DNA of 64,000 bases from Acidiferrobacterales bacterium (GTDB lineage: Bacteria; Pseudomonadota; Gammaproteobacteria; Acidiferrobacterales; SZUA-150), in contig CAMYII010000039.1 of the NCBI GenBank assembly GCA_947258385.1, forward strand, positions 19,723-83,722. The letters run 5' to 3'. Shown here piece by piece: positions 1 to 21,239 of the stretch. The translations under genes were made by a program, and so were the position numbers. The stretch's first letter is position 1; the number at the start of each line of letters is the position of its first letter. A model generated the notes under the pieces. It saw only the letters and a list, made by a program, of their open reading frames with translations. It was not told where the DNA came from and searched no databases.

Positions 1-776
1 TAGAGCCGTTCGCAGGGTTCCAGATTGGATTGAAGCAAAAACGGCGCGATAAGAAATACGGCTACATCGAAGTTGTTGGTCATTGGCGCGCGAGCTTGCT
101 TGTGAATAAGCTCCAGCCACACCTCACCGGGGAAGCGATCAGGGTATATCGGATTCCCTGAGTTTTTCGGTGAGCTCCCCTCTCCGGTAGAGCTATTAAT
201 TTTCGGTGGCTCGAGCGGTTCTTTTGGTGTCGGCCCCGTAGGAGGTGGCGCTTTTGAGGCCGGACTTCCCGCAAGCGTTAATGCCTCTATTACGAACTCC
301 TCTGACCAAGACGTATTAGGAAGAAACTTGACATTGGCATCATTGCCAGCTCCACCCCCTAACACCGCATTCCATTTTCCTACATCGGGTTCCGCCGGAT
401 CACGTCTGAATATACGGATTCGCTTTAGGTCTTCAGCAACCACTCTAAGTAGCAATTCATCTGCAAGCAGCGTTGTGGCGGGTGAGCGAACCTCCAGTTT
501 TGATAATTCATGTAGATCGGTGGCCCCCTGTATGCGATCATCATCGCAATCACGCTTGGTGGACAGGTCATCACCAACTGTCCATCCAGCAGGCAGTCCT
601 TTGGATAGATTCAAGTTAGGCAAAATGATGGCGCCGGGGCGCGTGTAGCGTTGTTGGCGCTCGCTTTTTGAATAGTCCAGCCTGCCGGTATGATCAAAAT
701 CACCATGCAATTCTGCATCAGCGCCCCGTATTACAAAACAGTTTGCTTTGCTAGGTTTGCAACTTAACTTAGGCAT
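1..776 (-). CDS. Protein-arginine deiminase (PAD)-like protein, first ~258 codons only (gene runs off the left edge); candidate T6SS cargo
   Basis: Absent from the supplied ORF track because no stop lies inside the window. I translated the minus strand from ATG 776..774 (GGTGA 6 nt upstream) and checked every in-frame triplet down to nt 3; there is no stop. The product starts MPKLSCKPSKANCFVIRGADAELHGDFDHTGRLDYS. The blocks DCDDDRIQGATDLHELSKLEV, EEFVIEALTLAG..FPGEVWLELIH and FDVAVFLIAPFLLQSNLEP align collinearly with vertebrate PAD middle-domain/catalytic-domain junction sequences as I recall them (DCEDDEVLDSEDLQDMSLMTL; FYVEALAFPDTDFPGLITLTISL; VVFRVAPWIMTPNTQPP). Confidence 0.6.
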   Translation of the reverse strand, partial: MPKLSCKPSKANCFVIRGADAELHGDFDHTGRLDYSKSERQQRYTRPGAIILPNLNLSKGLPAGWTVGDDLSTKRDCDDDRIQGATDLHELSKLEVRSPATTLLADELLLRVVAEDLKRIRIFRRDPAEPDVGKWNAVLGGGAGNDANVKFLPNTSWSEEFVIEALTLAGSPASKAPPPTGPTPKEPLEPPKINSSTGEGSSPKNSGNPIYPDRFPGEVWLELIHKQARAPMTNNFDVAVFLIAPFLLQSNLEPCERL

Positions 777-813
777 TAACAATCACCGTTTGCAGTGTAA
801 CTAGACATTGCCA

Positions 814-1905
814 TCATGATGTCGACACTCCACCTGAGAAATTTGGAAATTCGACTCTACTGGTCACAGGAGGAATATCTTCTTCCCGCTTATAACCATT
901 ACTGTCCAGGGTGCCACGCCTAACCTCACCATTGGATAGGTATAGAATGTACTCTTCATTGGCAATCGGCTCACCGTAAGCGTCTTTGAGCTCGATTTCT
1001 AACCAATCTTGAAACGCCAACAATCCTGATTTGGCACCGCAGTCCTTGACCGCTACGTTGAAATAATATTCTGGCGCAGAAAAGGCTGAAGTCTCTGCGA
1101 CACTCTCAGTGTCCAAATATCCTTCTGGATACTCGTAAGTCCATTCTGCCTCGATTTTATTACCACTCACCTCTGCTTCTATGTCAGTAACATACGAATC
1201 GGCACCATTGATATCCTGTGTGTAAATTGTGATTAATGCGACTTCCCCGTCCTCAAATCCCTCTGTGTCGGCACCGAGCTCGACCACATCTCCGACTCGA
1301 GCCTCATCTGCAGACCAGCTGGCATTCCTGACATCGAACAGCACGATATTGCAGTCGCCCTCATCGGGTAAGCCACCACGGCGAACCACGCCGTCGCGTG
1401 TCAGCCGGCTTACCTCCGTATAATCCTGAATATCGGTAAAGTCATACTTGACACCGGTAACGGGAAGGCCGGCTGAATCAACAAATTGATATTCTATCCA
1501 ATGCGGCCCGATAGCCTCCGGTCCGGCCTCGCCAACTATCGAGGCATGGGCGTTGTCGCTAGCTGTCTGGGCCGCGCCGCCACCGCCGCCGCTGCTGCCA
1601 CCGCCGGACGTGCCAATGAGCACGGTCGGGCATCCTGGCGGGATGATAACGTCCGGCGGGCCCACGCAAGTGGCCATGTCACCTACTGTCGCCGCGGGCA
1701 GTCCGCCAATTAATACTGTGGGAACACCGGGCGGTAACACCGGTCCGCCGACATGGGGAACAAGCACAGTCACCATTGGGCATACGTGCATGCTGGTAAT
1801 GGTCGCGGCGGGCATCCCACCGATGAGTACTGTGGGCACGCCCGGCGGCATGATTACGCCTCCGTGGGCGGTCATGTCAGCGACTCGTGCTGCGGGTCCT
1901 GGCAT
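814..1905 (-). CDS. PAAR-domain spike-tip protein with Gly linker and ~250-aa C-terminal extension (duplicated beta-rich module)
   Basis: 363-aa ORF. The N-terminal ~100 aa carry PAAR-type repeats (PPGVPTVLIGGMPAA, PPGVPTVLIGGLPAA, PPGCPTVLIG). A TSGGGSSGGGGG linker follows. An AGGAGG SD precedes the ATG, and the gene lies directly downstream of vgrG. Confidence 0.85.
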   Translation of the reverse strand: MPGPAARVADMTAHGGVIMPPGVPTVLIGGMPAATITSMHVCPMVTVLVPHVGGPVLPPGVPTVLIGGLPAATVGDMATCVGPPDVIIPPGCPTVLIGTSGGGSSGGGGGAAQTASDNAHASIVGEAGPEAIGPHWIEYQFVDSAGLPVTGVKYDFTDIQDYTEVSRLTRDGVVRRGGLPDEGDCNIVLFDVRNASWSADEARVGDVVELGADTEGFEDGEVALITIYTQDINGADSYVTDIEAEVSGNKIEAEWTYEYPEGYLDTESVAETSAFSAPEYYFNVAVKDCGAKSGLLAFQDWLEIELKDAYGEPIANEEYILYLSNGEVRRGTLDSNGYKREEDIPPVTSRVEFPNFSGGVSTS

Positions 1906-2019: not shown

Positions 2020-4215
2020 TTAATTAATTTTGACCAGACTACCGCTGACGGTATTAATTCCCGATGCCTCGGTGGTCACCATAGTGCCGCTGGTTTTGTT
2101 TTCGACGCCGGCTTCGGACGTCACGTTCAAGCCGTTTAGTTTTAGGTCCATCTGCGCCTCAATTTCAATATTGGTGGCCTTTAATGCGATGGTGCCACTG
2201 GGCGCCTCGACGTTTATTGAGCCGCTATCCGTGGAAACCACCAATGTGCTGCCGCCGATGTCGATCTTGAAACGATGCGATCCCCCACTGTCTTCCAGCG
2301 TGATACTGTCCGCGGAATCATCGATGGTGATGTAGTGGCCTTTGCTGCTGGTAATGCCGATGGCCTCGTTCTCATCGTCAAAAACCGCCGTATGGCCATT
2401 TGTGGTGGTCAGCTCGACTTTTTTGTTTTCATCATCCAGTGTAAAGATATGACCGTCCTTGGTCTGCGCGGTCATCTTTTGGTTTTTATCATCGAGCTCG
2501 ATTTTGTAACCGGTCGTGGAATTCAGGGTGACCGTTCCCTCGTTGGCGGTATCGGTATCATCAAACACCAGACTGTGCCCGTTGGTGGTCGTGACCGAGA
2601 CCTTCTTGTTCTGATCGTCGAGTTTAACGACATGCTGATCCCGGGTTTCGATCGTGAGTGATTGTGTTTTTTCATCTTCGGTGATCTTGTGCCCGTAGGC
2701 ATTGGATAACACCACCTGGGTCTCACCCTGTTTGTCCTCCATCAACAATTCGTTGTAGGTACCGTCTTCGGGCGAGGTGTGGCTTTTTACCGTGCTCTTT
2801 GTCTTAGACCCCGGAAGCGGATGGGGCGGCCGGTTGGTCCCGTGGTAGACGCGGCCGGTGATAATGGGCCGGTCGGGGTCCCCCTCGATGAAATTGACAA
2901 TGATTTCCTGGCCAATCCGGGGGATGTGCATCGCCCCCCAGTTCGCGCCGGCCCAGACCTGGCTCACACGGATCCAGCAGGAGCTGTTCTCGTTGTTCTC
3001 GCCCAGGCGATCCCAGTGGAATTGTACTTTGACACGGCCGTGCTCGTCGGTGTAGATCTCCTCGCCCTCGGGACCGACCACAATCGCGGTCTGCACACCC
3101 TCCATTAACGGCTTACGCGCCCGCTGCACCGGACGGAAGGGCACGGCAGCGGGTATGCATTGGAATTGATTACTGTAACTGCCAGCCCCGGCGCCGGCAC
3201 CTTCCTCGAGCGCCTGCGGTTGCGAGGCGGACTGCGTCAGTGACGTGATGAGGTATTCCTGGTTGAACTCGTCGCGGGGATGCTCGGTCAAGGTAAAACG
3301 AAAACCGGGCACCACCCGCTTGCAGTTGCTCTGGCCCATACCGGTCTTCTTCGCCGCCCGCAGCGCTTCCAGCCTGACGCCGGCCAGCTGATCGCCGCGG
3401 TCGGGCTCCTGGAATTCGCCCGGAAAGTCATAGACCTCAAGCTCCGTCTCGATGTCGGCCTGTTGTTGTGATTCCAGATTCAGCGCGGGTTTCTTGAAAT
3501 TGAAGTCCCGCAGCACGACGATGCCTGACTGGATGGATTCCGAATAACGGAATTGCGTAATCTGCTCCTGATCGGCGAGCAGGGTGGTCGGAGCGCGGTA
3601 CAGCACCTGCGCAGGGGCCATAATCTCTTCATGCGCCGAGACGCTATCAGCGATTACGAGCCTGTGCGTTTCTTCACTATGCTCGAAGAAATAGAAAATA
3701 CCTTCCTCTTCCATCAGCCGGGAGATGAAGTTGAAATCGCTTTCCCGATACTGGACACAATATTCCCTGGGCTCGTAGGTGCCCTGCAGGACGAAGCCGT
3801 ATTGATCCGATGGAATCTCTGCGTCGTTCAGGACCTGCTGAATGATGTCCTGCACGGTAAGGTTCTGGAAGATGCGGCTGTTGTAGCGATAACCAAGCAG
3901 CGCAACTTGAGGCACCAATTCCAGCTGATAGACGGTAAATCGCCTTCCTGACTCCAACTGCTCAACCCGGCTGATAATGCCATTGACATAGCGCTCGATA
4001 TCGTCGGCCCCGTAACACGACAGTAGGGCGTGCTTGCCGATGACATCGGCGAAACTGAGCTCCCCCTCCTCCGTAGCGACTGCGAGCTCAAAATTGAAGG
4101 GTTGAGAGATGCTTTCGTCGCCGCTGAAATTGAGCACGCGCAGTTCTTCAGCGAGTCCCTCCACCTTGAACGTGAAACGTTCCACGTTACCAGACACAAT
4201 AGCCGTTGTTGCCAT
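2020..4215 (-). CDS. vgrG: T6SS spike protein VgrG (TssI), no C-terminal toxin domain
   Basis: 731-aa ORF with a gp27/gp5-like core (FRFTLTEHPRDEFNQEYLITS, GRVYHGTNRPP). The C-terminal beta-helix is built of GH-x-[IV/F]-x-[FL]DD repeats and ends in LVKIN. Confidence 0.95.
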   Translation of the reverse strand: MATTAIVSGNVERFTFKVEGLAEELRVLNFSGDESISQPFNFELAVATEEGELSFADVIGKHALLSCYGADDIERYVNGIISRVEQLESGRRFTVYQLELVPQVALLGYRYNSRIFQNLTVQDIIQQVLNDAEIPSDQYGFVLQGTYEPREYCVQYRESDFNFISRLMEEEGIFYFFEHSEETHRLVIADSVSAHEEIMAPAQVLYRAPTTLLADQEQITQFRYSESIQSGIVVLRDFNFKKPALNLESQQQADIETELEVYDFPGEFQEPDRGDQLAGVRLEALRAAKKTGMGQSNCKRVVPGFRFTLTEHPRDEFNQEYLITSLTQSASQPQALEEGAGAGAGSYSNQFQCIPAAVPFRPVQRARKPLMEGVQTAIVVGPEGEEIYTDEHGRVKVQFHWDRLGENNENSSCWIRVSQVWAGANWGAMHIPRIGQEIIVNFIEGDPDRPIITGRVYHGTNRPPHPLPGSKTKSTVKSHTSPEDGTYNELLMEDKQGETQVVLSNAYGHKITEDEKTQSLTIETRDQHVVKLDDQNKKVSVTTTNGHSLVFDDTDTANEGTVTLNSTTGYKIELDDKNQKMTAQTKDGHIFTLDDENKKVELTTTNGHTAVFDDENEAIGITSSKGHYITIDDSADSITLEDSGGSHRFKIDIGGSTLVVSTDSGSINVEAPSGTIALKATNIEIEAQMDLKLNGLNVTSEAGVENKTSGTMVTTEASGINTVSGSLVKIN

Positions 4216-4639: not shown

Positions 4640-5155
4640 TCACGCGTTGGCCACGCGGAAGGTATCGCTCGACTCTGTGCCCGCCACCTCGTGCGTCCAG
4701 GTGATGGTGGCAAACGAGAACGACACCTCCTCCATCTGCCCGTATTGCTGGTACTTGGGGTCCAGGATATCCGGCATGACGGCGCGCATCCCCACGACAA
4801 TGGCGTTTTCCAACGCGATGGTAAAGTAATGCTCAAGCTGGCCCGCGGAAGAGGTGCGATAAAACTGAAAGACGACCTTGGTCAAGGTTTCCCCGCTGGC
4901 CAGTGCGTTGTAAAGCAGCGGTGAGGACTTGTCCATGAGCTTGGTGACGGTCAAGGCCTCATGAATCCGCTGGCCGGTAGGCTGACCGCTCTGCGGATCC
5001 TTGGGCAAGAATACATTGTGTTTGAGCTCGACCACGCGGATCTCATCGGCGTGATCCTCTACCGCCATATTACCGACGCTCTCCTCGGTGCATGCCCCCT
5101 GGGAAATGGGACCCTGAGTGGTACCTTCAACTAAACAAAAGACAGGATTGGCCAT
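4640..5155 (-). CDS. hcp: T6SS inner tube protein Hcp (TssD)
   Basis: 171 aa. Strong resemblance to Hcp1-family proteins (GTTQGPISQGACTEESVG, DPQSGQPTGQRIH, SSPLLYNALASGE, ITWTHEVAGTE). A GGAGGAA SD is present. Confidence 0.95.
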   Translation of the reverse strand: MANPVFCLVEGTTQGPISQGACTEESVGNMAVEDHADEIRVVELKHNVFLPKDPQSGQPTGQRIHEALTVTKLMDKSSPLLYNALASGETLTKVVFQFYRTSSAGQLEHYFTIALENAIVVGMRAVMPDILDPKYQQYGQMEEVSFSFATITWTHEVAGTESSDTFRVANA

Positions 5156-5230
5156 GATCGTTCCTCCGTGTTATTCGGTTTATCAATGTTGCGAATTCAA
5201 AACACCCCGTAAGTGTGTTCGTCTTACGTA

Positions 5231-5248
5231 TTCCATTTTCCGTGCCAA
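5231..5248 (-). promoter_or_regulatory. Candidate sigma-54 promoter for hcp
   Basis: The minus strand reads TTGGCACGGAAAATGGAA. The -24 element TGGCACG is perfect, but the -12 reads ATGG rather than TTGC. It lies ~80 nt upstream of the hcp ATG, and the adjacent gene encodes a sigma-54 activator. Confidence 0.3.
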
Positions 5249-5344
5249 CTCTCTGTATGGACGCAAAAACGATACAAGCTATTGCTTTTATACATTATTC
5301 CACGAGAACACCGATCAATCAGGGGTCGCTGCTGAAGTGCCGAG

Positions 5345-5394
5345 TGTGCAGGGGTCTGCACAGTGATGAGGGTCAGTGTGCGAGACTCTGCGCG
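5345..5394 (-). promoter_or_regulatory. Two related 18-mers (possible tandem enhancer/UAS sites, or terminator stem of the regulator gene)
   Basis: TGTGCAGGGGTCTGCACA (5345-5362) is a perfect 7-bp inverted repeat. TGTGCGAGACTCTGCGCG (5377-5394) matches it at 12 of 18 positions. They are 32 nt apart and ~100 nt upstream of the candidate -24 element. Confidence 0.25.
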
Positions 5395-5395
5395 G

Positions 5396-7066
5396 TTATT
5401 GAACCGACGACTGCTTGATCTGGGTTGCGGGTTCGCGACCGATACCGTAGCGGTTAATCTTGTCGATGAGGGTGCGGCGCGAGACCTTGAGCTCGCCGGC
5501 GGCCTTGGTCTGGTTCCAGTGACAGGCCTCAAGTTTCTCCCTGATCACGGCGGCCTCGTAGCGCTCCACTAACTCCTTCAGCGGACCCTCGGCAGGAAGG
5601 GACGCGCCGGTTTGTGGTCCGCGTTCCCGCCCGGCGAGCTCCTGGAGGTGATCGGGCAGGTGCTCCGGCAAGATGCTACCGTCCGCCTCGCACATCAGTA
5701 CCGCCCGCTCGATGATATTGTGCAGATCGCGGACGTTGCCCGGGTAGTCATAGTCCAACAACACCTCCAGGGCAGCGGGGGCAAACCCGGAAAGAGGCTT
5801 GTGGTATTTCTCCGAAAAGTGCTGCAGATAGTGCTGTAGCAGCGCCGGCAAGTCCTCCTTACGCTCTCGTAATGGCGGCAGCTCAATCGGGAACACACAC
5901 AAACGATAGTACAGGTCCTCCCGGAACTCCCCCGACTTAATGCTGGCCTCAAGATCACAGTGCGTGGCCGCCACCACCCGGACATTGACCCGGCGGCTTT
6001 CAGTCGCGCCCAGCGGTCGCACCTCGTTGTCTTGCAGCACACGCAACAGCTTCGCCTGCAATGGCAAAGGCATATCACCGATTTCATCCAGAAACAACGT
6101 CCCACCATCGGCAAGCTCGAAAAGCCCCTTTTTATCCGATGCGGCACCGCTGAAGGCACCCCGTTTGTAACCGAACAGCTCGCTTTCCAACAAGTTTTCC
6201 GGCAGCGCCGCGCAGTTCTGTGTGACAAAGGCCTTGTTGCGCCGACGGCTGTTGTAGTGCAACGCGTGCGCGATCAGTTCCTTGCCAGTACCGGTCTCGC
6301 CACGTATCAGTACGATGGCATCCGATTCCACGATCTTTTCAATAAGCGAGAACACGCTGCGCATGGCGGGGCTTTCACCAATGATTCGGGAAAAATCGTA
6401 TTTCCCCTGTATCTTGTTGCGCAGGGCCGTGTTTTCCTCCTCGAGTTGCCGGTTGGTCGTGTCGAGCACGTCGATCAGACGCCGGTTTTTCTCGAATAGC
6501 TGCACATTATCAATGGCGACCGCGGCCTGCGCCGCGAATGCATTGATGACGGCCTCAAGCCCCTGAGGCAGACTGACTACACGTTCAGTACGCGGATCGC
6601 GGATATTGATAAGCAGCAGCACACCTACCGTGATCTGCCGGTGGGTGCGCAGGGGCACCGCCAGCAAGCACCGTGTCTCGACGCCGGCCGCCCGGTCATC
6701 GGCACACAGATCGCTGAAGTCGAAGCCAGAATACTTGTTGATGTCGGCGATACTGATCGATCGGCCCATGAACGCAGCGTATGCCATCAGGTTGGTCATG
6801 TTGCGTTCGCCTTCCAGGTATAACGGAACCGGCGGGAACTCGTGGCGCCGTCGCGCCGGATTATCGCTCTGGGCCAACTCGACGTACAAATGGCGCCGCG
6901 CCTGATCGATGATATACACCCGCCCGGCGTCGGCGTGGCTGATCTTGCGTGCAGCCGTGACGATGGTGCTGAGAAGCGTGTTGAGATCGCGTTCCGTCGA
7001 CAGCGCGCAATTGATCTCGACCAACTCCTCCAGGGTCAATCCGCCGTCTTTATCATTACTGTCCAT
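5396..7066 (-). CDS. Sigma-54-dependent transcriptional activator (GAF - AAA+ - HTH), VasH-like T6SS regulator
   Basis: Walker A GETGTGKE, a GAFSGA variant of the GAFTGA loop, ESELFGY, and a C-terminal Fis-type HTH (WNQTKAAGELKVSRRTLIDKI). The N-terminal part is GAF-like. I prefer ATG 7066 (MDSNDKDGG), 4 nt after the clpV stop; the track's longer start would overlap clpV. Confidence 0.9.
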   Translation of the reverse strand: MDSNDKDGGLTLEELVEINCALSTERDLNTLLSTIVTAARKISHADAGRVYIIDQARRHLYVELAQSDNPARRRHEFPPVPLYLEGERNMTNLMAYAAFMGRSISIADINKYSGFDFSDLCADDRAAGVETRCLLAVPLRTHRQITVGVLLLINIRDPRTERVVSLPQGLEAVINAFAAQAAVAIDNVQLFEKNRRLIDVLDTTNRQLEEENTALRNKIQGKYDFSRIIGESPAMRSVFSLIEKIVESDAIVLIRGETGTGKELIAHALHYNSRRRNKAFVTQNCAALPENLLESELFGYKRGAFSGAASDKKGLFELADGGTLFLDEIGDMPLPLQAKLLRVLQDNEVRPLGATESRRVNVRVVAATHCDLEASIKSGEFREDLYYRLCVFPIELPPLRERKEDLPALLQHYLQHFSEKYHKPLSGFAPAALEVLLDYDYPGNVRDLHNIIERAVLMCEADGSILPEHLPDHLQELAGRERGPQTGASLPAEGPLKELVERYEAAVIREKLEACHWNQTKAAGELKVSRRTLIDKINRYGIGREPATQIKQSSVQ

Positions 7067-7070
7067 GTCC

Positions 7071-9731
7071 TTATTCGCTGGTGAACTCGTAGCTGAAATC
7101 TCCGTCCTGAGCGATGCCGATGCGAAGTACATTCGGCATGTTTTCTTCGGCCATCCGTTGCAGGATCTCCGTCGAGATGCGTGGTAGCAGCGTCTTGTTG
7201 ACGATGTAATCGATATTGCGCGCGCCGGTTTCGACTTCCGTACAACGCTGCGCGATCTGGTCCACGACCTTGGGGTCATGTTGGAATTCGATGCGCTGGC
7301 TGTCGTAGAGCCGCTTGCCGAGCTGATTCAGTTTCAGGCCGACGATCTCTTTCATGACATCCGGCTTGATGGGGAAAAATGGCACCACTTCCATGCGCGC
7401 CAGCAGCGCGGGTTTGAAATGGTTGTTCAACACCGGACGTATGGCCTCGGTCAGGACATCGAGCTCCGGGGGGGCGTCTCCCGCCGCGATCTGCATGATG
7501 ATGTCGGAGGCAAGGTTGCTGGTGAGCACCAGGATGGTGTTCTTGAAATCGATCACCCGTCCCTCGCCGTCGGCCAGCATGCCCTTATCGAATACCTGGT
7601 AGAACAGGTTCAACACGTCAGGGTTCGCCTTCTCGACCTCATCGAGCAGGACCACGGAATACGGACGCTGGCGCACGGCCTCCGTCAACACGCCGCCCTC
7701 ACCGTAACCGACATAACCGGGCGGCGAACCGATGAGACGCGAGAGCGTGTGCTTTTCTTGAAATTCCGACATATTAACGGTCACGACAAAGCGCTCACCG
7801 CCGAACAGCAGATCGGCGATCCCGAGACCACACTCGGTCTTGCCGACGCCGCTGGGGCCAACAAACAGGAATACACCGATCGGCGTGTTGGGCGCGTTCA
7901 CGCCGGCCTTGCTGGCCCGGATACGGCGGTCGATCGCCGCGATGGCATGATCCTGGCCCTTGATCCGCTTGCTCAGGTTTTCACTGAAACTCAGGATCGT
8001 CCTGGCCTCGTCCTTGACCATGTTACCCACTGGAATACCGGTCCAGTCCGAGACTACCTTGCTGACCGAGTCCGGGCTGACCCCAACATGAATCAGCGGA
8101 TCCTCGCCCTGGATCTTCTCAAGCTCGGCTTCCGCGGCACTGAGCTCCTGGCGGATAGCTTTGGCTTCGCCTTCCGCGACAGGCTTGGCCTCCCCACCCT
8201 CTTCGCCTTGGGACTTGCCGGTGAGCTTGTTGCGCAGATCGATAATTTTCCCGGCAGCGGCGCGTTCCTCGTCCCAACGCGCCTGCAGGGTCTCTAGCTC
8301 TTTGCGGATATTTCCGATCTCCTCTTCGAGTGGCGGCACTTGCTCGCTGTCCCCACCGGTGCCGGTCTCGATATCCCGGCGTATGGCGCCAAGCTCCCGC
8401 TCCAACGTCTTGATCCTGCGTTCGCGGTCGTCGATCTGGTCCGGCTTGGCCGACAGATTGATTTTTACCCTGGCACAGGCCGTATCCAGTAGATCAACGG
8501 ATTTATCCGGCAGCTGCCGGCCGGAGAGATAACGGGCCGCGAGGTGGGCCGAAGCCCCTACCGCGCTGTCGCTGATATACACATCATGCGCCTGCTCGTA
8601 TTTTTCGCGCAGTCCACGCATGATCGTCACGGCGTCGTCAGGCGACGGTTCCTCGATCTTCACCAACTGGAAACGCCTGGCCAGCGCCGGGTCCTTTTCG
8701 AAGTACTTTTTGTATTCCGACCAGGTGGTGGCGGCGACGGTGCGCATCTCGCCCCGCGCCAATGCCGGCTTCAGCAGATTGGCCGCATCACCGCCGCCGG
8801 CGCTGCCGCCGGCACCGATCAGGGTATGGGCCTCATCGATAAAAAGAATAGTCGGCTTCGGCGAGGCCTTGATCTCCGAGATGACCGATTTCAGTCTTTG
8901 CTCGAACTCGCCTTTTACGCTGGCACCGGCCTGCAGCAGACCCAGATCCAGACCGTAGATCAGTGTGTCTTTCAGCACGTCGGGGACATCGCCTTCGACG
9001 ATCTTCAGCGCCATGCCCTCGACCACCGCCGTCTTGCCGACTCCGGCCTCGCCGACCAGGATGGGATTGTTTTTTCGTCGACGCATGAGGATATCGATCA
9101 TTTGCCGGATTTCGTGGTCACGACAGAACACCGGATCGATCTCCCCGGCCCGCGCCCGCTCGGTGAACTCGACGGTGTACTTGCCGAGCGCCGTGTCCGC
9201 TGCCGGTACCGAGGGTCCGCCGGGGACAGCTTTTTCCACTCCGATCGCCGCGGCAGCCTCCCGTGACCCTGACACGATATCGTAGAAATTCTTGCGCAGG
9301 TCGTCGGCGGAGATCGGCTCGATCTCGCTGAAGTAATCGTCAAGCCCGTAACGGCGGGGATTGAGCACCAGCGCGGCAATGAGCGCACCAGAACGGATCT
9401 CGGCCAGATTCAGTTCGACCGAGCCGAACAGCCAGCCTTCCTGGATCCACTCAATGAGCAGGTTCGAGAAAACCGGCTTGCGGGTGTTGCCGGTCTTCTC
9501 CGATTCAACCGTTCGCTGTATCGCCTTTGTCGCCCTGCTGGGATCGATCTCGTAGTGGCGCAGGATCTGATGAAAATCGCAGGCCGGGTCCTCGAGCAGC
9601 ATCAATAGCATATGTTCGATCGACACCTCGTAGCTACCCTTCGATAAACACAGCCCTGCAGCCGCCTCTAAAGACCGTGTGCAATAACTATTTAGCCGAC
9701 TTAACAGCGGTTTGAGTTCGAGAGTAATCAT
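7071..9731 (-). CDS. clpV: T6SS AAA+ ATPase ClpV (TssH)
   Basis: 886 aa with a Clp N-domain and two AAA modules (GEAGVGKTAVVEG; GPSGVGKTECG). Confidence 0.95.
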   Translation of the reverse strand: MITLELKPLLSRLNSYCTRSLEAAAGLCLSKGSYEVSIEHMLLMLLEDPACDFHQILRHYEIDPSRATKAIQRTVESEKTGNTRKPVFSNLLIEWIQEGWLFGSVELNLAEIRSGALIAALVLNPRRYGLDDYFSEIEPISADDLRKNFYDIVSGSREAAAAIGVEKAVPGGPSVPAADTALGKYTVEFTERARAGEIDPVFCRDHEIRQMIDILMRRRKNNPILVGEAGVGKTAVVEGMALKIVEGDVPDVLKDTLIYGLDLGLLQAGASVKGEFEQRLKSVISEIKASPKPTILFIDEAHTLIGAGGSAGGGDAANLLKPALARGEMRTVAATTWSEYKKYFEKDPALARRFQLVKIEEPSPDDAVTIMRGLREKYEQAHDVYISDSAVGASAHLAARYLSGRQLPDKSVDLLDTACARVKINLSAKPDQIDDRERRIKTLERELGAIRRDIETGTGGDSEQVPPLEEEIGNIRKELETLQARWDEERAAAGKIIDLRNKLTGKSQGEEGGEAKPVAEGEAKAIRQELSAAEAELEKIQGEDPLIHVGVSPDSVSKVVSDWTGIPVGNMVKDEARTILSFSENLSKRIKGQDHAIAAIDRRIRASKAGVNAPNTPIGVFLFVGPSGVGKTECGLGIADLLFGGERFVVTVNMSEFQEKHTLSRLIGSPPGYVGYGEGGVLTEAVRQRPYSVVLLDEVEKANPDVLNLFYQVFDKGMLADGEGRVIDFKNTILVLTSNLASDIIMQIAAGDAPPELDVLTEAIRPVLNNHFKPALLARMEVVPFFPIKPDVMKEIVGLKLNQLGKRLYDSQRIEFQHDPKVVDQIAQRCTEVETGARNIDYIVNKTLLPRISTEILQRMAEENMPNVLRIGIAQDGDFSYEFTSE

Positions 9732-9799
9732 AGCCTTGTCTTCTTGTCCATTAGGTCAAAATCAGAATAATTATCAGTCCTTGCTAGCAAAGCTGATTG

Positions 9800-10849
9800 T
9801 CAGCGCGACTCATGTGCCCCCCATGATTCCTCCAGCCGGCCCCGTTGCCGGATGGTGATATCACGGTCCGGACGCCTGCCCAGCCAGGTGGATCGTCCCA
9901 GGTGGCAGGTGTTGTCACGCGAGAGCATGAATGGCGGAACATCCCGTGCCATCAGCGTCAGCTCGATATCAAACTCCAGCGGGTCACTGACGATGAACAT
10001 CACCAACTCGCGGAGACATCTATAGTTCTTTCCATGCGGCAGAAACGCCTCGTAAACGGTGTACCGGAGCGGCCCAAGGCGAACACTGAATTTTCCGTTG
10101 CGATCACGTATCGTCTGACCCAAAACGGCGTCAACACCCAAGGTGACATTCATACGGCCTAGCAAATTACAGTCCGCACGATCGATCATGGCCTTATACT
10201 CGACATATTGCCGTACGCTGACAGGGCAGCCACCGAAATAATACGAGACAATACTGCTCAGAACCTGCGCGGAACGAATGCGCATGCCCAGCAAGCCGAT
10301 GTAGGGAACCAGCCTCGACCAGTCGACACTGCTTTTTGCCCGGATCATCGGGTTACCGAGGCCTGTGAGCGCAAACATCCATTGCGAAAACTGGTCCGTT
10401 GCACCGGGCAAATACTGCGCGTAATAACGGTACTTCGCCCAGGTCCGGTAGAAGAACGACACAAAACGATGATTAAACAGATCCAAAAAATGACGAACAC
10501 CGGAATCCTCACCGCCGGCATACAGTATGTCTTCCGTATAATGGTCAGGCAACGGCGAGGAAGGCCCGTACATGCCGAGAAAATTCACGGTCATCAAGAA
10601 CTCCGGGTACCCTTTGACTTTCGTTTCGCGCCGTTCGACCGATTCAATGTCCCTGGCAGCAAACGCGAGACTCGCGTTCGCGCGAAACAAGACCGGCGCT
10701 TGACTGACAGATCCCCTGCCGCCGATTGGTCCGCTGGCCGCGCTGACGCGCTCCAGCAGCCTTACCGCCTGGAAAAAAGAAAAAGGCTTGCTGTTATTCA
10801 GCAGGTCCTTAACTAAAGCAGCGGCTGTTGGCCTATCCTCGGTTTCCAT
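9800..10849 (-). CDS. tssG: T6SS baseplate protein TssG
   Basis: 349 aa with an N-terminal FSFFQAVRLLE motif typical of TssG/ImpH. It follows tssF with a short overlap. Confidence 0.9.
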   Translation of the reverse strand: METEDRPTAAALVKDLLNNSKPFSFFQAVRLLERVSAASGPIGGRGSVSQAPVLFRANASLAFAARDIESVERRETKVKGYPEFLMTVNFLGMYGPSSPLPDHYTEDILYAGGEDSGVRHFLDLFNHRFVSFFYRTWAKYRYYAQYLPGATDQFSQWMFALTGLGNPMIRAKSSVDWSRLVPYIGLLGMRIRSAQVLSSIVSYYFGGCPVSVRQYVEYKAMIDRADCNLLGRMNVTLGVDAVLGQTIRDRNGKFSVRLGPLRYTVYEAFLPHGKNYRCLRELVMFIVSDPLEFDIELTLMARDVPPFMLSRDNTCHLGRSTWLGRRPDRDITIRQRGRLEESWGAHESR

Positions 10850-12576
10850 TGGTATTCATCACCGCGATCAAGGTCTCGCACGACGAGCTGGATAAAGGAG
10901 TTCACGCTCGCGTATAATGAAAAAAATTGGTTAAGTATTGTCGCAAATAAGTACATTTCCCCTTCGCTGGAAAAACTCCCGCTTTTCATGCTGAGGAAAA
11001 TCTTATACCCACGCACGGGCAGCCCTTTGAACATCATGGTCGTGGGTTCCAGCTTGATACCGCTTAAGCCTTCCATCCTCAGCTCGTGCGCTCTCTGCGC
11101 CTGCCTGTCGTAGAAGGCCGGGAAGTTATAGGTCGACAACACGACCCTCAAGGCCTGCACATCGGCCAGCGACAGATAATTCAACGACATATTCGAGATA
11201 AGCTGCCAGTGCAAGTCGCTTTCCAGTGGTGGCGGCGTTGAAGCCGTTACCAGTAAAACGTTTTTGAATTCGGCGAACTCCGGTGATGATCCTGTCTGGA
11301 CCGAAATGTCGCCGATCCGCAATTTCTCGGGCAAACGATTGTTGGTGCAGGTCAGCTCGGCAGATACCGTCACGACCTGTGGGGCAACGCCCTTCTCGCC
11401 ATGGGATTCGAATGACAAGAAGGTATCAACATTCATTCCGACCACGGATGGTCGCAGTCTTATTCTGTAATAGTTGTAGCCATCATCCATGGTACTGGTG
11501 GCATGATCAAAGGACGCAAATGGAGCATAGAGCACTTTTTTTCTGTCGCCATACGCCCATCCTTCGACACGATCAATAGAATAAATCTCAAAATGCGAAG
11601 GTTCCGATGCAGAGGGCCTGACGCGGTATTCGTCCTTGTTGTGCTCAATGCGGATCGGATCGGCATCCTTGGCAAAGAGATTCACAATGGGAGTGCAATA
11701 AAGCAGTATGCTGCTATTCGTCAACCTTACATGATCTTCGATGCGGCGATTGAATTCAAAGGTGATTGCAAACTTGTTCTCGATCGGTAGCCGCGCGATG
11801 GAACCAAGATCAGTCAATTCCAGAAACAGGAATTTTTGCGGTAAGTTGAAATATTCCTGCAGCAGGCGATAGCCGATAAAGGCATTGGGAGGATATGGAA
11901 CGAGCTCCTCATCATCGGCGAAGCCGACGGCGTGCACGGCGTCGGGCGGTAATGTTAATTTGCCACCGCTACCCGCCTTTCTTGATCCCTCGATGGTGAT
12001 CCCAGCCAGATGCCGGAAGAAAAACGAATAGAGTGTAAAACAGGTCTGCAAATCCCCGTTAAGAAAAAAGCGCAAGCTCGCCATATCGATTTTGTCGATG
12101 GATGCACCTTCGTGCAACTGAAACTTTATTTTGAGCTGCGTCGTGGGCCCGGTCCTTTTCAGCCCAATGCCAGTAATCGACAGTGGATAGATATCGACGT
12201 CGTAACAGGTCCGGAAACGGCACGGCGTGCCATCAACCGGTTTTGAGTCGACCTCCACACCACGGGTGACGGTCTGTTTCTCAGTGACCGCGCCGGGCAA
12301 TGGTGTCAACTGAAGAACGGACGCCGAGGGAATGGGGCGCAGCAGGTTCGGCCATAACAAGGCATGCAGGCCGTGCGTGAGCTCAGGCAGTTGGTCGTCC
12401 AGCTTCTGCCGGATGCGGCCGGCGATAAAGGCAAAACCTTCCATTAGCCTTTCGACATCCGGATCGTTACCCTTGTCTGTCAGGAAAGGCGCCAGCTTGG
12501 GATAGGCGCGCGAGAAGACCTCTCCCATTTCACGCAGATAGGCCAGCTCTTCCTGATAGTATTCGTTAAATGGCAA
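10813..12576 (-). CDS. tssF: T6SS baseplate protein TssF
   Basis: TssF/ImpG-like N-terminus (FNEYYQEELAYLREMGEVFSRAYPKLAPFL). The probable start is TTG 12576, 5 nt after the tssE stop with AGGA upstream. The track start at 12633 would overlap tssE by 52 nt. Confidence 0.9.
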   Translation of the reverse strand: MPFNEYYQEELAYLREMGEVFSRAYPKLAPFLTDKGNDPDVERLMEGFAFIAGRIRQKLDDQLPELTHGLHALLWPNLLRPIPSASVLQLTPLPGAVTEKQTVTRGVEVDSKPVDGTPCRFRTCYDVDIYPLSITGIGLKRTGPTTQLKIKFQLHEGASIDKIDMASLRFFLNGDLQTCFTLYSFFFRHLAGITIEGSRKAGSGGKLTLPPDAVHAVGFADDEELVPYPPNAFIGYRLLQEYFNLPQKFLFLELTDLGSIARLPIENKFAITFEFNRRIEDHVRLTNSSILLYCTPIVNLFAKDADPIRIEHNKDEYRVRPSASEPSHFEIYSIDRVEGWAYGDRKKVLYAPFASFDHATSTMDDGYNYYRIRLRPSVVGMNVDTFLSFESHGEKGVAPQVVTVSAELTCTNNRLPEKLRIGDISVQTGSSPEFAEFKNVLLVTASTPPPLESDLHWQLISNMSLNYLSLADVQALRVVLSTYNFPAFYDRQAQRAHELRMEGLSGIKLEPTTMMFKGLPVRGYKIFLSMKSGSFSSEGEMYLFATILNQFFSLYASVNSFIQLVVRDLDRGDEYQWKPRIGQQPLL

Positions 12577-12581
12577 CGGTC

Positions 12582-12998
12582 CTATCCTCGGATGGATGCC
12601 TTTCCGGCCGAGTCCAGCGTGGTCTGAAACCACACGTTTCCCTTGGCCCCATCGACCACTAGCTGTGCCGTGATATCATAATGCAAATCCAGCGGACTCT
12701 CCGGATTGGGGGCATAATCGACTTTCACATTGCATAGTCGAGGCTCGTACTTTTCGATACAGGTCTTTATCGCTTTTCGCAGCTCGAGAATGGCGTCGGG
12801 AAATCGCATGGCGAGGTCATTGAAATCAGGCAATCCGTAATCGGGCAGCGCGGGCACGCTTCCGTGCCTGACATTCAACATCTTTCGCATGTGCTCGAGC
12901 ACGGAATCGACAAGCTTGTCTTCGTTGAGTTTCAGCTTGTACCCGCCCGCGCCCTCGGGCCGGGCAATTCTTTCGAGCAGACTCTGTTCGAATGCCAT
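12582..12998 (-). CDS. tssE: T6SS baseplate protein TssE (gp25-like)
   Basis: 138 aa from ATG 12998, with GGGAGG 12 nt upstream. The sequence LNVRHGSVPALPDYGLPDF fits the GPW/gp25 family. The track ORF extends to a GTG at 13064 with no SD. Confidence 0.85.
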   Translation of the reverse strand: MAFEQSLLERIARPEGAGGYKLKLNEDKLVDSVLEHMRKMLNVRHGSVPALPDYGLPDFNDLAMRFPDAILELRKAIKTCIEKYEPRLCNVKVDYAPNPESPLDLHYDITAQLVVDGAKGNVWFQTTLDSAGKASIRG

Positions 12999-13278
12999 AA
13001 GCGCTGTGGACCTCCCAGTTACAGTTGACGGCGAATCATGCCTCTGCCCACGCAAAACCGCCACGCCCCTCAGTGCGACGATGTCGCGAAGCCAACCAGC
13101 TATGCCGTTCTGGTCAGCGCAAGTACATCTGCGATTATCTCACGGAGCTAACACACCCTTATTCCGCATCGTTTGCGGTTGAATTCTTATCGATTGGGCA
13201 GACGTCATCCCTTCATCGTTATTTTATCCAACAAAAGGCCCGCGATCTCAAACCCCTGCCCGAGAGATCAACAGATCC

Positions 13279-14766
13279 TTACGCCTTGTCTAACTTCCCT
13301 TTTAGCGAGAGCGTAAAATTCGCACCCATGTACTTGAAATGGGGTACGAGGTCGAGCGACACAGTATACCACCCGGCATCCTCGGCTTCGGAAACGGTAA
13401 TCTGCGCCTGCCTCAGCGGCCGGCGACTACGTACGGACGCCGGCGGATTCTCTTGATCGGAGACATACTGACGTAACCAGTTTCCGAGCTCCTTTTCCAG
13501 GTCGGACTTGCTTTTCCAGCTGCCGATCTGCTCGCGCTGCAGCACCTTGATGTAATGCGCGAGCCGGGTAATGATGAACAAATACGGAAGCTGAGTACCG
13601 AGGCTATAGTTCACCGCCGCTTCCTTGCCTTCCGCGGTACCGCCAAAGTTCTTGGGTTTCTGCACGGAATTGGCCGAGAAAAAGGCCGCGTTATCACTGC
13701 CCTTTCTCATGGTTAATGCAATAAAGCCCTCCTCAGCGAGCTCGAACTCCTTACGATCCGATACCAGCGCCTCGGTCGGAATCTTGGTCTCGATCTCACC
13801 CATCGACTCGTACTGGTGCAACGGCAGGTCTTCCACCGCGCCACCGCTCTGCGGACCGATGATGTTCGGGCACCAACGGTACTTGGCGAAGCTGTCGGTC
13901 AGCCGCGTTGCGAACGCGAAGGCGGTGTTGCCCCACAGGTAGTCATCGTGGGAACCATGAACGTCTTCCTCGTAATCGAAGGCCTTGACCGGGTTGGAAT
14001 CCTTGCCATAGGGGACACGCAGCAGGAAGCGCGGCACGGTCAGCGCAATATAGCGCGAGTCTTCGGATTCACGGAAGGAATTCCATTTGGCATAGCGCGG
14101 GCCCTCGAAGATCGATTTCAGATCCTTGAGATTGGGCAGCTCCTCAAAGGATTCGACGCCGAAAAAGCTGGGACCCGCCGCGGTCACGAAAGGCGCGTGC
14201 GCCATGGTGGCGACGCTGGCGACGTTCTGCAGCAGCTTGATATCCTGCGCCGACGGGCTGAAGTCAAAATTGCCAATCATGGCGCCGACCGGTTTGCCAC
14301 CGAATTGGCCGTATTCGGCGGTATAAACGTGCTTATACAGCCCCGAGAGGGTGATCTCCGGATTATCGGTGAAGTCATCTTCCAGACCTTCCTTGGAGAC
14401 ATTGAGCATACCGACCTCGATGTTCTCCCTGAAATTCGTGCGGTCGACGACGAGTTTCAGGCCACGCCAGGCCGATTCCAGCTGCTGGAACTTGGGATTG
14501 TGCATGATCGCGTCCAGCTGCTTGCTCAGCTTCTGATCAATCTCGGCGATCACCTGGTCGACCAAGGCCTTTTCGACCCGCTCCTCATAACGGGAGGACT
14601 TGATAATTTCCGAGAGGAAGAGCTCGACACCCTTTTTCGCTACCTCATAGGACTCGTCCTGGGGCTTGATCTTGGTCTCCTGCATGATCTGGTCCAGAAG
14701 CGAGACCTCTTCGGCTTGTGCTTCGGCAGCGGCATTGCCTTCCTGCTTTTCTTCGGCATCTGCCAT
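13279..14766 (-). CDS. tssC: T6SS contractile sheath large subunit TssC (VipB)
   Basis: 495 aa, VipB/TssC family in length and sequence character, immediately downstream of tssB. Confidence 0.95.
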   Translation of the reverse strand: MADAEEKQEGNAAAEAQAEEVSLLDQIMQETKIKPQDESYEVAKKGVELFLSEIIKSSRYEERVEKALVDQVIAEIDQKLSKQLDAIMHNPKFQQLESAWRGLKLVVDRTNFRENIEVGMLNVSKEGLEDDFTDNPEITLSGLYKHVYTAEYGQFGGKPVGAMIGNFDFSPSAQDIKLLQNVASVATMAHAPFVTAAGPSFFGVESFEELPNLKDLKSIFEGPRYAKWNSFRESEDSRYIALTVPRFLLRVPYGKDSNPVKAFDYEEDVHGSHDDYLWGNTAFAFATRLTDSFAKYRWCPNIIGPQSGGAVEDLPLHQYESMGEIETKIPTEALVSDRKEFELAEEGFIALTMRKGSDNAAFFSANSVQKPKNFGGTAEGKEAAVNYSLGTQLPYLFIITRLAHYIKVLQREQIGSWKSKSDLEKELGNWLRQYVSDQENPPASVRSRRPLRQAQITVSEAEDAGWYTVSLDLVPHFKYMGANFTLSLKGKLDKA

Positions 14767-14836: not shown

Positions 14837-15373
14837 TTATTCGCCCGGCTCTTCTTTGCCCTCTTCGGCCGTTTCGGCACCCTCGGCACCGCCCTCTTTT
14901 GCCTGCAGCTCCTGCAACAGTTTTTCCCGTGTGGCCTCGTCGGTAATCAGGGACTGAATGCGCTTGCGGAAGCTGGGTACATTACCCAGGGGCCCCTTGA
15001 GCGTGGTCAGCGCCTCCCTCAGCTCCAGCAGCTTCTGCAATTCCGGAACCTGTTGCGCCACCCCCTGCGGTTCGAAGTCCTTGAGCGCGTTAAACTTGAG
15101 GTTGACGGGGATTTCACCGCCTTCCTCGGCGAGCTTGTTCTCCGCGGTGATGGAGACATTGAGCTTCTGACCACGAAGCACGTCATCGAAATTGTTCTTA
15201 TCGATGCTGACCACTTTGCGGTCTTCCAGCGCGGTTTCGTCTTCCTGAAGCGTGAAATCGCCCAGCATCAGCACCTTGAGAGGAAGCTCGATCTCCTCCT
15301 GCGCGTCACCGGTCGCGGGTTTGTAGACGATATTGATTCTCTCTTTCGGTGCCACCGAGCTTTCTTTGGCCAT
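14837..15373 (-). CDS. tssB: T6SS contractile sheath small subunit TssB (VipA)
   Basis: 178 aa. KERINIVYKPATGDAQEEIELPLKVLMLGDF is the canonical TssB N-terminal pattern. Confidence 0.95.
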   Translation of the reverse strand: MAKESSVAPKERINIVYKPATGDAQEEIELPLKVLMLGDFTLQEDETALEDRKVVSIDKNNFDDVLRGQKLNVSITAENKLAEEGGEIPVNLKFNALKDFEPQGVAQQVPELQKLLELREALTTLKGPLGNVPSFRKRIQSLITDEATREKLLQELQAKEGGAEGAETAEEGKEEPGE

Positions 15374-20525: not shown

Positions 20526-21239
20526 CTATCCCTCTATCACGCGCGCTATGACGTTTCCGACGACTCCGTTCAACACAAGGGAATAGACAAAGAACAGAAA
20601 AAGGAGCAATACGGGCGGGGCGAATATTAGCCACACGCTTGAAATCAGCCAGGCCGATCTGGTTTTGTTCGGCTGACGCTCGCCTCCCTGATCCATCTTC
20701 CCTTGATAGGCATCGTCGAACATGGTCTTCTTCGTATATGACCGCAACCCTTCTATGTTCCCTGTCAGCATATTGAGCGTCGACTGTTTGAGCTGCTCCA
20801 GCAGCATCTCATCACCGTCATGACAGTAACGTCCCATGAACCCAAGACACAAGCACACATAATACACTTCCCGCACCGCGTGCTGATCGGGAGACAGCTG
20901 CGTCAATCGCTCGAAAAACTCATCACCGGCGTTCTTGGTGTTGTAAAACTCCGTTTGCAGCTGGAAACGCTGCCATTTCGCCTTATGCATCCAGGGCATA
21001 TTCAGGATCGTCTCATCGACCCAGGCGCACGCCGCAAATCTCGCGTCATCATAATCACGCGGATCGACCCCCAGCATCCTCATCTGCTCGGCGGAATCCA
21101 GGAAAAGAGAGCGCAGTTTTTCACTCACCTCTTCAAACGGGAGCTGTCGCTGTACGCAGGTCTGCTTGAGCAGCATCGTGTAGGCAAAAACGCTGACGAA
21201 ACACTCGCTCAGCAGATGATCAATCTTGTTATTTCCCAT
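20526..21239 (-). CDS. tssL: T6SS membrane complex protein TssL (DotU-like), no peptidoglycan-binding extension
   Basis: DotU-type cytoplasmic domain plus a single C-terminal TM (WLISSVWLIFAPPVLLLFLFFVY). The likely start is the internal ATG (MGNNKIDHLL), overlapping the tssK stop. Confidence 0.85.
   Translation of the reverse strand: MGNNKIDHLLSECFVSVFAYTMLLKQTCVQRQLPFEEVSEKLRSLFLDSAEQMRMLGVDPRDYDDARFAACAWVDETILNMPWMHKAKWQRFQLQTEFYNTKNAGDEFFERLTQLSPDQHAVREVYYVCLCLGFMGRYCHDGDEMLLEQLKQSTLNMLTGNIEGLRSYTKKTMFDDAYQGKMDQGGERQPNKTRSAWLISSVWLIFAPPVLLLFLFFVYSLVLNGVVGNVIARVIEG

Follow-up and report, generated by a model that had tools for sequence, protein, structure and literature searches.

A protein-arginine deiminase-like gene behind a type VI secretion spike, and its HEAT-repeat neighbour as a candidate immunity partner

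What is a gene for a protein-arginine deiminase (PAD) doing directly behind the spike genes of a bacterial type VI secretion system (T6SS)? The question is raised by a stretch of 64,000 nucleotides from an Acidiferrobacterales bacterium (assembly GCA_947258385.1, contig CAMYII010000039.1, positions 19,723 to 83,722; "the window" below means this whole stretch). Its left edge cuts through an open reading frame (ORF) that follows genes for a VgrG and a PAAR protein. The answer that we favour, with a probability of about 0.7, is that this ORF encodes a T6SS cargo toxin that would citrullinate proteins of the target cell, would be carried on the C-terminal extension of the PAAR protein, and would be neutralised by a HEAT-repeat immunity protein. 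The case is built on sequences, gene order and predicted structures.

The gene at the left edge

An ATG on the minus strand (776-774) is the start of 258 sense codons that reach base 3 of the window without a stop. The frame is missing from the mechanical ORF list solely because it leaves the window. It begins 37 nucleotides past the stop codon of the PAAR gene (TGA, 816-814), on the same strand. The original prediction, which had described an ORF running from an ATG at 776 to the edge, is confirmed in the sequence on each of these points. A comparison with a close ortholog described below gives a ratio of nonsynonymous to synonymous substitution (dN/dS) of 0.12 at dS 0.46, and so this fragment (1 to 776, minus strand) can be taken as the 5' part of a coding sequence under purifying selection.

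That the protein is PAD-like, as had been proposed from blocks set beside human PAD4, is upheld by three kinds of comparison. The PAD_M profile (PF08527) scores 31.4 bits over amino acids 71-167 of the fragment (E 1.7e-7), where its gathering cut-off is 24.8. A phmmer search against all PDB sequences gives PAD4 chains as its 12 best matches (E ~0.005). When the fragment is modelled with AlphaFold2 from 26 aligned sequences (pLDDT 78.5, pTM 0.79), the top 50 Foldseek matches of the model are all PAD1/2/3/4/6 structures, the best with E 3e-10 over ~236 aligned columns. Here, amino acids ~16-245 make up a PAD_M-like Ig domain, and at ~230-258 the catalytic domain opens with its first strand. Five pairs of blocks had been set beside PAD4. 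Four of these, and the first half of the fifth, recur in the alignments, which pair EEFVIEALT with DFYVEALA of PAD4 in the PDB search and, below threshold, FDVAVFLIAPFLLQSNLEP with VVFRVAPWIMTPNTQP where the catalytic domain begins; the half that paired FPGEVWLELIH with FPGLITLTISL is in no printed alignment. By profile and by predicted fold, the ORF thus belongs with PADs of the PF08527/PF03068 kind, and not with the PPAD family of Porphyromonas. A word-indexed protein search gave no scoring matches, either with the fragment or with an alignment, and proline-rich words probably swamped it. No second PAD copy was found inside the window.

One part of the fragment has no counterpart in PAD4. 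This is a proline-rich insert (window 130-265, amino acids ~170-215 of the PAD), with the consensus GDPxxPxPxGxxPxPP and a low pLDDT. Its position is kept across T6SS-linked relatives, and it may serve to link flexibly or to dock.

The window supplies only the first strand of PF03068, of course, and the catalytic residues fall past its edge. Exact searches with the DNA of the window's left end, over species-representative genomes and metagenome contigs, returned nothing, and exact copies of its PAAR, VgrG and Hcp proteins were absent from the records. The remainder of the gene had to be sought by proxy, and a proxy was found in the metagenomic contig Ga0209633_10004747 (L087 in our numbering of loci), retrieved with a 3-sequence alignment of the window's closest subclade. 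L087 shares ~90% DNA identity with window positions 1-1683, and its vgrG 3' end is matched too. The PAAR proteins are identical at 321 of 363 residues (dN/dS 0.16 at dS ~0.46), and the first 258 PAD residues at 232 of 258, without a gap. In L087 the PAD gene has 817 codons, and its product matches PF03068 with E 9.9e-57 and PAD_M with 29.6 bits. The motifs WVQDAFELGY, VGHVDEF and GEAHCATN align to PAD4 D350, H471/D473 and C645, which places the catalytic residues at D337, H474, D476 and C783. These are invariant across 21 aligned family members. Equivalents of PAD4 W347, Q349, D350, E353, R374, E411, H471, D473 and C645 are all present in L087. Thus the missing part, which the original prediction had wished to see recovered and had held could still lack a catalytic domain or its Cys, carries in L087 both a PAD domain and the Asp/His/Asp/Cys set; the window itself ends earlier. 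As judged from sequence, the ortholog has what catalysis needs, and the window ORF probably makes up the first third of an ~817-codon gene, which would encode a two-domain PAD (PAD_M plus the PAD catalytic domain).

To which class of PAD does such a protein belong? It starts ~15 residues ahead of the PAD_M-like domain, with window amino acid 16 aligning to PAD4 residue ~110. Of the three Pfam families to be looked for, PAD_M was matched in the window and PF03068 in the ortholog and relatives; PAD_N was matched in none of window, L087 and relatives. Because PAD_N is missing and the PAD_M-like domain begins near the N-terminus, the protein is of the bacterial "two-domain" PADI type. The epithet "animal-type" in the original prediction is apt for the PF03068 family as set against PPAD, but not for the three-domain form of animals and cyanobacteria.

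The calcium sites tell much the same story. For PAD4 residues N153, D155, D165, D168, D176 and D179, we take the roles to be those given in the PAD4 structure papers. In the window, the equivalents of N153, D165, D168 and D176 are kept, D179 is replaced by Glu, and D155 by Asn. In L087, the Ca1 ligands Q349, E353 and E411 are kept, but the Ca2 site is lost (E351A, D369H, S370C, N373G). Several of the calcium-binding residues that were to be checked are therefore in place, and others are replaced. Two-domain PADIs from actinobacteria, proteobacteria and fungi conserve the catalytic and substrate residues and keep calcium sites 1, 3 and probably 5, and are divergent at sites 2 and 4 (Cummings et al., 2021, PMC8826395). 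The pattern in the window and L087 agrees with this bacterial and fungal type. Because the Ca2 site is unconserved and D155 is Asn, calcium dependence is assumed here, and only assumed.

Relatives, injection systems and the HEAT-repeat neighbour

An exhaustive phmmer search over 1.84 billion representatives returned 51 relatives. All are rare metagenomic proteins labelled "hypothetical", and there is no NCBIfam model for the subfamily. The best, P0001, has 832 amino acids (47% identity, E 4e-58). In every full-length relative, PF03068 (E 1e-39 to 1e-68) lies downstream of the part that corresponds to the window. The motifs W.QD..E.GY, VGHVDE and GE.HC[GA]TN, which align to PAD4 Asp350, His471/Asp473 and Cys645, are found in most of the 51, including all of the closest. 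A model of P0001 (pLDDT 83.2, pTM 0.87) matches PAD4 as a whole enzyme (E 2e-37; template-modelling score 0.73, normalised to PAD4).

The original prediction had relied on position, the slot after vgrG and PAAR being one where T6SS cargo is encoded. The relatives bear this out, for they are found fused to PAAR, lying between vgrG and PAAR, or sharing a module with the PAAR protein of the window. Two of them, P0027 and P0038, begin with a PAAR domain (E 1.5e-15 and 4.4e-19), and a proteobacterial metagenome-assembled genome (MAG; L014) has a third PAAR-PAD fusion in one open frame. In L001, the 3' end of vgrG is followed by a PAAR-PAD fusion and then by a gene for a HEAT-repeat protein. In L006/L007, the order is TssE-TssF-TssG-ClpV-302aa-VgrG-132aa-LysM/PG_binding_1-PAD-HEAT-PAAR.

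The shared module is part of the PAAR protein itself. In the window, this spike-tip protein (814 to 1905, minus strand, 363 amino acids, PAAR_motif E 4e-19) has its PAAR domain in amino acids ~1-100 (bases ~1606-1905), then a Gly/Ser linker, and then an extension of ~250 residues (amino acids ~116-363, bases 814-1560) in which two small beta-sandwich-like units are seen (amino acids 136-198 and 299-356). Neither Pfam nor NCBIfam has a name for it. The extension is homologous to a cut gene just upstream of the P0002 PAD (38-40% over 165 amino acids, E 8e-33 and 7e-38), to a gene for a 132-residue protein between vgrG and PAD in L006, L016 and L019, and to a stand-alone gene of 323 codons further along L087 (E 2e-32). 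Small beta-sandwich extensions of the transthyretin-like kind serve as T6SS cargo docks. We infer that the extension and the 132-residue protein are a transthyretin-like beta-sandwich adaptor; the label goes no further than that, because the matches of the 132-residue protein (CarboxypepD_reg, Big_1 and prealbumin-like) are all sub-threshold. The module is seen elsewhere as well. In a Trueperaceae MAG, from a phylum that is not known for T6SS, a distant PAD gene has a homologue of the extension (L027, 12941-13510, E 1e-32) ~1.5 kb downstream. The module may accompany PADs outside T6SS contexts too.

How general is the coupling? Among 18 related loci, several of them on short contigs, VgrG and/or PAAR (free, fused or Tox-PAAR-like) were found in nine, accessory modules only in four, a sheath/tube cluster in one, and nothing in four. 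Around 64 distant PAD loci (L023-L086, with flanks of ~10 kb in most; cyanobacteria, Myxococcota, Aminicenantes, actinobacteria and others), a few tblastn queries gave essentially no VgrG, PAAR, HEAT or core T6SS matches. The three PAAR-PAD fusions, the vgrG-...-PAD-HEAT-PAAR order, the shared modules and the near-absence of all this from distant loci imply that the T6SS link goes beyond chance position; the cargo reading is supported by a recurrent genetic coupling to spike proteins.

Relatives of 1560-1630 amino acids present another architecture, with a Zn-phospholipase-C-like N-terminus. Relatives of 1500-1600 residues had been candidates for VgrG-PAD fusions, and were rejected as such because their N-termini are Zn-phospholipase-C-like and one lies in a sheath/tube cluster. 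The gene for P0012 follows Phage_sheath_1 and tube genes and is itself followed by a HEAT_2 gene. On L089 and L090 (JGI 3300078356 and 3300078497), a 1567-residue protein with this N-terminus and a C-terminal PAD stands between sheath/tube genes and a HEAT_2 gene, which by gene content puts the PAD-HEAT cassette into a non-T6SS contractile injection cluster. Taken across these loci, the cassette behaves like a mobile toxin-immunity module common to contractile injection systems.

The HEAT gene is the most faithful companion of the PAD gene. In L087, a 324-residue HEAT_2 protein (E 3.7e-13) starts 37 nucleotides past the PAD stop, and this is the downstream gene that a search for an immunity partner was to look for. 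A homologous gene lies directly 3' of PAD in 17 of the 18 related loci (pairwise BLAST E 1e-8 to 1e-40), the exception being L005, where a gene for a 358-residue lipoprotein-like product takes its place. In L088 the HEAT gene is duplicated, two copies standing in tandem. With alternative starts allowed, lipoboxes are read in L006 (LAAC), L014 (LAAC), L088 (LVAC) and L003 (ISGC), and signal-like N-termini in L087 (LFLSLFLLIGLNASC), L004 and L019. No HEAT homologue was found inside the window; by synteny, the HEAT gene of the window strain should lie ~1.7 kb past the left edge. HEAT repeats are a recognised class of predicted immunity proteins (Imm-HEAT) of polymorphic toxin systems (Zhang et al., 2012, PMC3482391). 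Because of its position, its conservation and its duplication, we infer that the HEAT protein is an immunity protein, mostly periplasmic.

Other genes keep company with the PAD in one place or another. A conserved LysM/PG_binding_1 protein of 214-217 amino acids, with no obvious signal peptide, is encoded beside PAD in L004 (832-1476), L006 (9335-9988), L016, L017 and L019, and in neither the window nor L087; perhaps it is an accessory that is secreted alongside and anchors to peptidoglycan. An uncultured Salinivenus MAG (CAYOWD01, Bacteroidota; L009-L013 and L018) has at least six PAD copies of the subfamily, some of them in tandem. In L087, past the HEAT gene (4998-11790), there follow a DcrB/PsbP-fold gene (164 amino acids), the 323-residue homologue of the PAAR extension, a 1004-residue protein without a Pfam match, and a 438-residue protein with an NADase-type glycan-binding domain; a weak Aspzincin_M35 match is also seen. 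We take the DcrB/PsbP family to be the former DUF1795 of Eag-type T6SS chaperones. This region should correspond to the sequence left of the window edge, the P0001 contig has a similar gene order, and the whole is probably a second cargo module.

What the PAD-HEAT pair would do

The proposed mechanism is simply stated. The PAD gene would be transcribed together with PAAR. The enzyme, for which no Sec or Tat signal is apparent (its N-terminus, MPKLSCKPSKANCFVIRGADAELHGDF, read directly and without a predictor, has no hydrophobic core), would dock on the beta-sandwich extension at the PAAR C-terminus and ride the spike; docking is proposed because the module co-occurs with PAD genes and because natural PAAR-PAD fusions exist. 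Contraction of the sheath would drive it into an adjacent cell, where the Asp-His-Asp-Cys site, fully conserved in ortholog and relatives and for that reason predicted to be a deiminating one, would hydrolyse the guanidinium group of arginine in target proteins to give citrulline, an irreversible loss of charge. In kin cells, the HEAT protein encoded directly downstream, past the window edge, would block the enzyme. The likeliest site of action is the periplasm or envelope of the target, where Ca2+ would be available for a PAD-type enzyme. This is suggested by the HEAT partners, most of which are of lipoprotein type (the ortholog's included), and by the LysM/PG_binding_1 genes in several loci.

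Co-transcription is likely, since the spacer has 37 nucleotides (777 to 813, minus strand) and no convincing terminator: a hairpin at 797-784 is at chance level (6 found against 5.3 expected in shuffled sequence). The spacer contains a GGTGA ribosome-binding site and is identical at 35 of 37 positions between window and L087, while flanking synonymous sites have diverged (dS ~0.46). The hairpin, CACTG-CAAA-CGGTG, overlaps the ribosome-binding site.

Several observations weigh against this account, and should be set out together. Both the catalytic domain and the HEAT gene lie outside the window, and are read from an ortholog of 90% identity (232/258) and from relatives of 27-53%. With the PAD4 Ca2 site lost and Asn for D155, calcium dependence is an assumption. 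The HEAT partners of L001, L008, L017, L021 and L022 have no room for an export signal, and the compartment is thus not uniform across the family. The Salinivenus PAD copies have no HEAT neighbour detectable by tblastn, and look like an expansion without the usual partner. Four PAD-HEAT loci (L008, L020, L021, L022) have no T6SS gene in the sequence covered. The screen of distant loci used few tblastn queries, which divergent homologues may escape. Co-occurrence is the whole of the case for an adaptor role of the PAAR extension, and in L087 the same module precedes a different large gene. Lastly, for every member of the family, activity, secretion and toxicity are predictions.

Might the same enzyme be aimed at eukaryotes instead, grazers or hosts, whose histones or cytoskeletal proteins it would citrullinate, with the HEAT protein having nothing to do with immunity? 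All the well-studied substrates of PF03068 enzymes are proteins of eukaryotes. Histone H3 is citrullinated by a PADI from a cyanobacterium (PMC8826395). The P0012 relative, moreover, lies in a sheath/tube cluster of the phage-tail-like kind. Such injection systems often target eukaryotes. The original prediction had also noted that no immunity-like ORF separates PAAR from PAD, had thought this to fit a eukaryotic target, and had allowed for a partner past the edge. The observation holds, and a partner past the edge is what L087 displays; the inference fares worse, given a HEAT gene in L087 and 16 other loci. The conservation of that gene, its duplication in L088 and its mostly lipoprotein-type signals are the signature of immunity to a toxin that reaches the bacterial periplasm, LysM/PG_binding_1 genes in five loci point to a target that contains peptidoglycan, and the P0012 locus retains its HEAT gene too. 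A eukaryotic target is thus unlikely, though not negligibly so. Nor does it seem at all probable that the PAD is delivered but the HEAT protein is a chaperone, an adaptor or an activating cofactor, self-protection being left to low cytoplasmic Ca2+ alone. HEAT repeats are, of course, generic protein-binding scaffolds, five partners are without export signals, and PADs are inactive without Ca2+ (PMC8826395; Harris, 2020, bioRxiv 10.1101/2020.07.16.207027). But T6SS adaptors act in the cytoplasm of the producer, and most partners carry lipoprotein signals; the gene stands directly 3' of the toxin, as immunity genes do, in one case in tandem copies; and PADs that are fused to PAAR, and that need no loading adaptor, still retain it.

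The most conservative view would be that the PAD is not secreted at all, but is an intracellular tailoring or regulatory enzyme that stands beside the T6SS by chance, modifying a peptide as in citrulassin biosynthesis, or having free arginine or some other guanidino compound as its substrate. The sole bacterial PF03068 enzyme with a demonstrated role is one that tailors a peptide made on the ribosome and modified after translation (RiPP), the contexts of 837 bacterial PADs, when surveyed, proved "highly diverse" (Harris, 2020), and actinobacterial homologues that align over the full length of P0001 (L041, L049) cannot be T6SS cargo. This view would, however, have to treat as accidents three independent PAAR-PAD fusions, the vgrG-...-PAD-HEAT-PAAR order, and shared modules that distant loci do not have. 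No lasso-peptide or other RiPP genes were seen beside the PAD in the window or L087. We regard this view as very improbable.

For the favoured reading, cargo of the T6SS with a HEAT immunity protein, a wider form may be entertained at even odds: that contractile injection systems carry in PAD-HEAT a toxin-immunity cassette not recognised before, which occurs as T6SS cargo, as PAAR fusions and, in a phage-tail-like cluster, as a phospholipase-C-like fusion, with citrullination an interbacterial weapon that is probably gated by Ca2+ in the periplasm and silent in the low-Ca2+ cytoplasm of the producer.

How does such a pair compare with what is known? T6SS cargo effector-immunity pairs load through PAAR or VgrG C-terminal extensions, and like them the genes here put an effector after vgrG and PAAR and a candidate immunity gene directly 3'. 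Tre1-Tri1 is a T6SS toxin pair that targets arginine, by ADP-ribosylation of an arginine of FtsZ. The modification predicted here would likewise be an irreversible one of arginine in target proteins, but the chemistry would be hydrolytic deimination, the enzyme is a two-domain protein of ~800 amino acids of a kind shared with animals, and the candidate immunity protein is built of HEAT repeats and is in most cases a lipoprotein. The Imm-HEAT class also has HEAT proteins beside toxins as predicted immunity, including the T6SS-linked Ntox34; the pairing in that catalogue is with Ntox34 and Tox-REase-7, and in 300,000 of its 357,715 characters no deiminase or pentein toxin appears, the words "deiminase", "pentein" and "citrullin" being absent (PMC3482391).

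Set against the vertebrate enzymes PAD1-4/6 (PAD_N PF08526, PAD_M PF08527, PAD PF03068), the protein has the same fold, with an Ig-like middle domain and a catalytic alpha/beta-propeller, and the ortholog has equivalents of Asp350/His471/Asp473/Cys645 and of the substrate-binding Trp347 and Arg374 of human PAD4. Sequence identity is ~17-20%, however. PAD_N is missing, the Ca2 site is not kept, PAD_M bears the proline-rich insert, a helical insert of ~110 residues lies in the catalytic domain (PAD4 609-616 corresponds to P0001 658-771), and the protein would be T6SS cargo with a HEAT partner. Two-domain PADIs (PMC8826395) and the Streptomyces citrulassin PAD share the PAD_M plus PAD_C architecture and the catalytic residues; the present subfamily is marked off by its downstream HEAT gene and its linkage to T6SS and other contractile injection systems, which actinobacterial and other distant loci are without. 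That bacterial enzymes of this family can be active is known: the Streptomyces PAD, a PF03068 peptidyl-arginine deiminase, makes citrulassin in vivo (Harris, 2020), and the cyanobacterial PADI citrullinates proteins in a Ca-dependent manner (PMC8826395). Proteobacterial PADs come mostly from uncultured aquatic and sediment bacteria (Harris, 2020). In neither survey of bacterial PADs is a context of secretion or toxins mentioned (PMC8826395 contains neither "secret" nor "toxin", and "secret" is absent from Harris, 2020). The PPAD of Porphyromonas gingivalis (PF04371), among secreted citrullinating enzymes of bacteria the one that is well known, is exported by a dedicated secretion system, as is proposed here, and citrullinates proteins of other organisms (PMC5445135; Harris, 2020). 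It differs in its family, in being Ca-independent and unalignable outside the active-site motifs (Harris, 2020), and in its use of a type IX rather than a type VI system, its host target and its lack of an immunity partner.

The original prediction had known of no PAD-family T6SS effector, and the searchable full-text literature, which does not extend to subscription-only papers, likewise contains no report that we could find of a PAD linked to a T6SS or to interbacterial antagonism. T6SS effector-immunity pairs and PADs are both known, of course; it is their combination for which no description was found, and this is an absence of evidence within that literature. What is probably new, therefore, is a toxin domain and a chemistry not previously assigned to a T6SS effector-immunity pair. 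If the enzyme is active, the T6SS repertoire of amidase, lipase, nuclease, deaminase, NADase and ADP-ribosyltransferase activities would gain citrullination. This would be an irreversible, charge-neutralising modification of arginine, most likely at the cell envelope, a site for which few protein-modifying toxins are known. The reading speaks to an open point of the PAD literature, in which PF03068 enzymes are sparse among bacteria and the surroundings of their genes have seemed uninformative. If true, it would give the "enigmatic" proteobacterial PADs an ecological role, and raise the possibility that fungal and animal PADs descend from a family that includes toxins of antagonism. The pair is a directly testable system for toxicity, rescue and substrates. 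Since PAD inhibition is of medical interest, a protein that inhibits a PAD-family enzyme in nature would attract attention as well.

The secretion cluster in the window

All T6SS genes from 23993 down to 1 are on the minus strand, and the PAD ORF is the last of them, after Hcp, VgrG and PAAR. These immediate neighbours are as the original prediction had them. Pfam gives PAAR at 814-1905, VgrG at 2020 to 4215 (731 amino acids; Phage_GPD E 3e-98, Phage_base_V E 6e-14) and the tube protein Hcp at 4640 to 5155 (T6SS_HCP E 4.9e-33). By its Pfam matches (E 1e-14 to 1e-167 for the core genes, the FHA-like ORF excepted), the cluster is complete, with TssA-M, Hcp, VgrG and PAAR. The order continues with an enhancer-binding regulator with GAF, sigma-54-interaction and HTH_8 domains (5396 to 7279; Sigma54_activat E 1e-72), the ClpV (TssH) ATPase (7071 to 9731; AAA_2, AAA_lid_9, ClpB_D2-small), TssG (9800-10849), TssF (10813-12633), TssE (12582-13064), TssC (13279-14766), TssB (14837-15373), TssA (15394-17004), TssM (17017-20520), TssL (20526-21296), TssK (21229-22695) and TssJ (22759-23256). 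The FHA-like ORF (23253-23993) matches T6SS_FHA_C with E 6.2e-5 and 23.3 bits, just under the gathering cut-off of 23.7.

At the upstream end of the cluster, an ORF of 893 codons (23990-26671, minus strand) has no Pfam matches even at permissive thresholds. The remainder of the window is ordinary chromosome, with YhdP, RNase G, LeuRS, Lnt, MgtE and PtsP-like genes, and with rpoN at 38020-39516 on the plus strand, recognised by its RpoN domains. Together, YhdP, RNase G, RpoN, PtsP-like, Lnt and LeuRS suggest that the chromosome is a gammaproteobacterial one; a search of the window for RNA genes, by which it might be placed taxonomically, found none. The listed ORFs of the sigma-54 activator (5396-7279) and ClpV (7071-9731) overlap by ~200 nucleotides, and one of the two starts is probably placed too far upstream.

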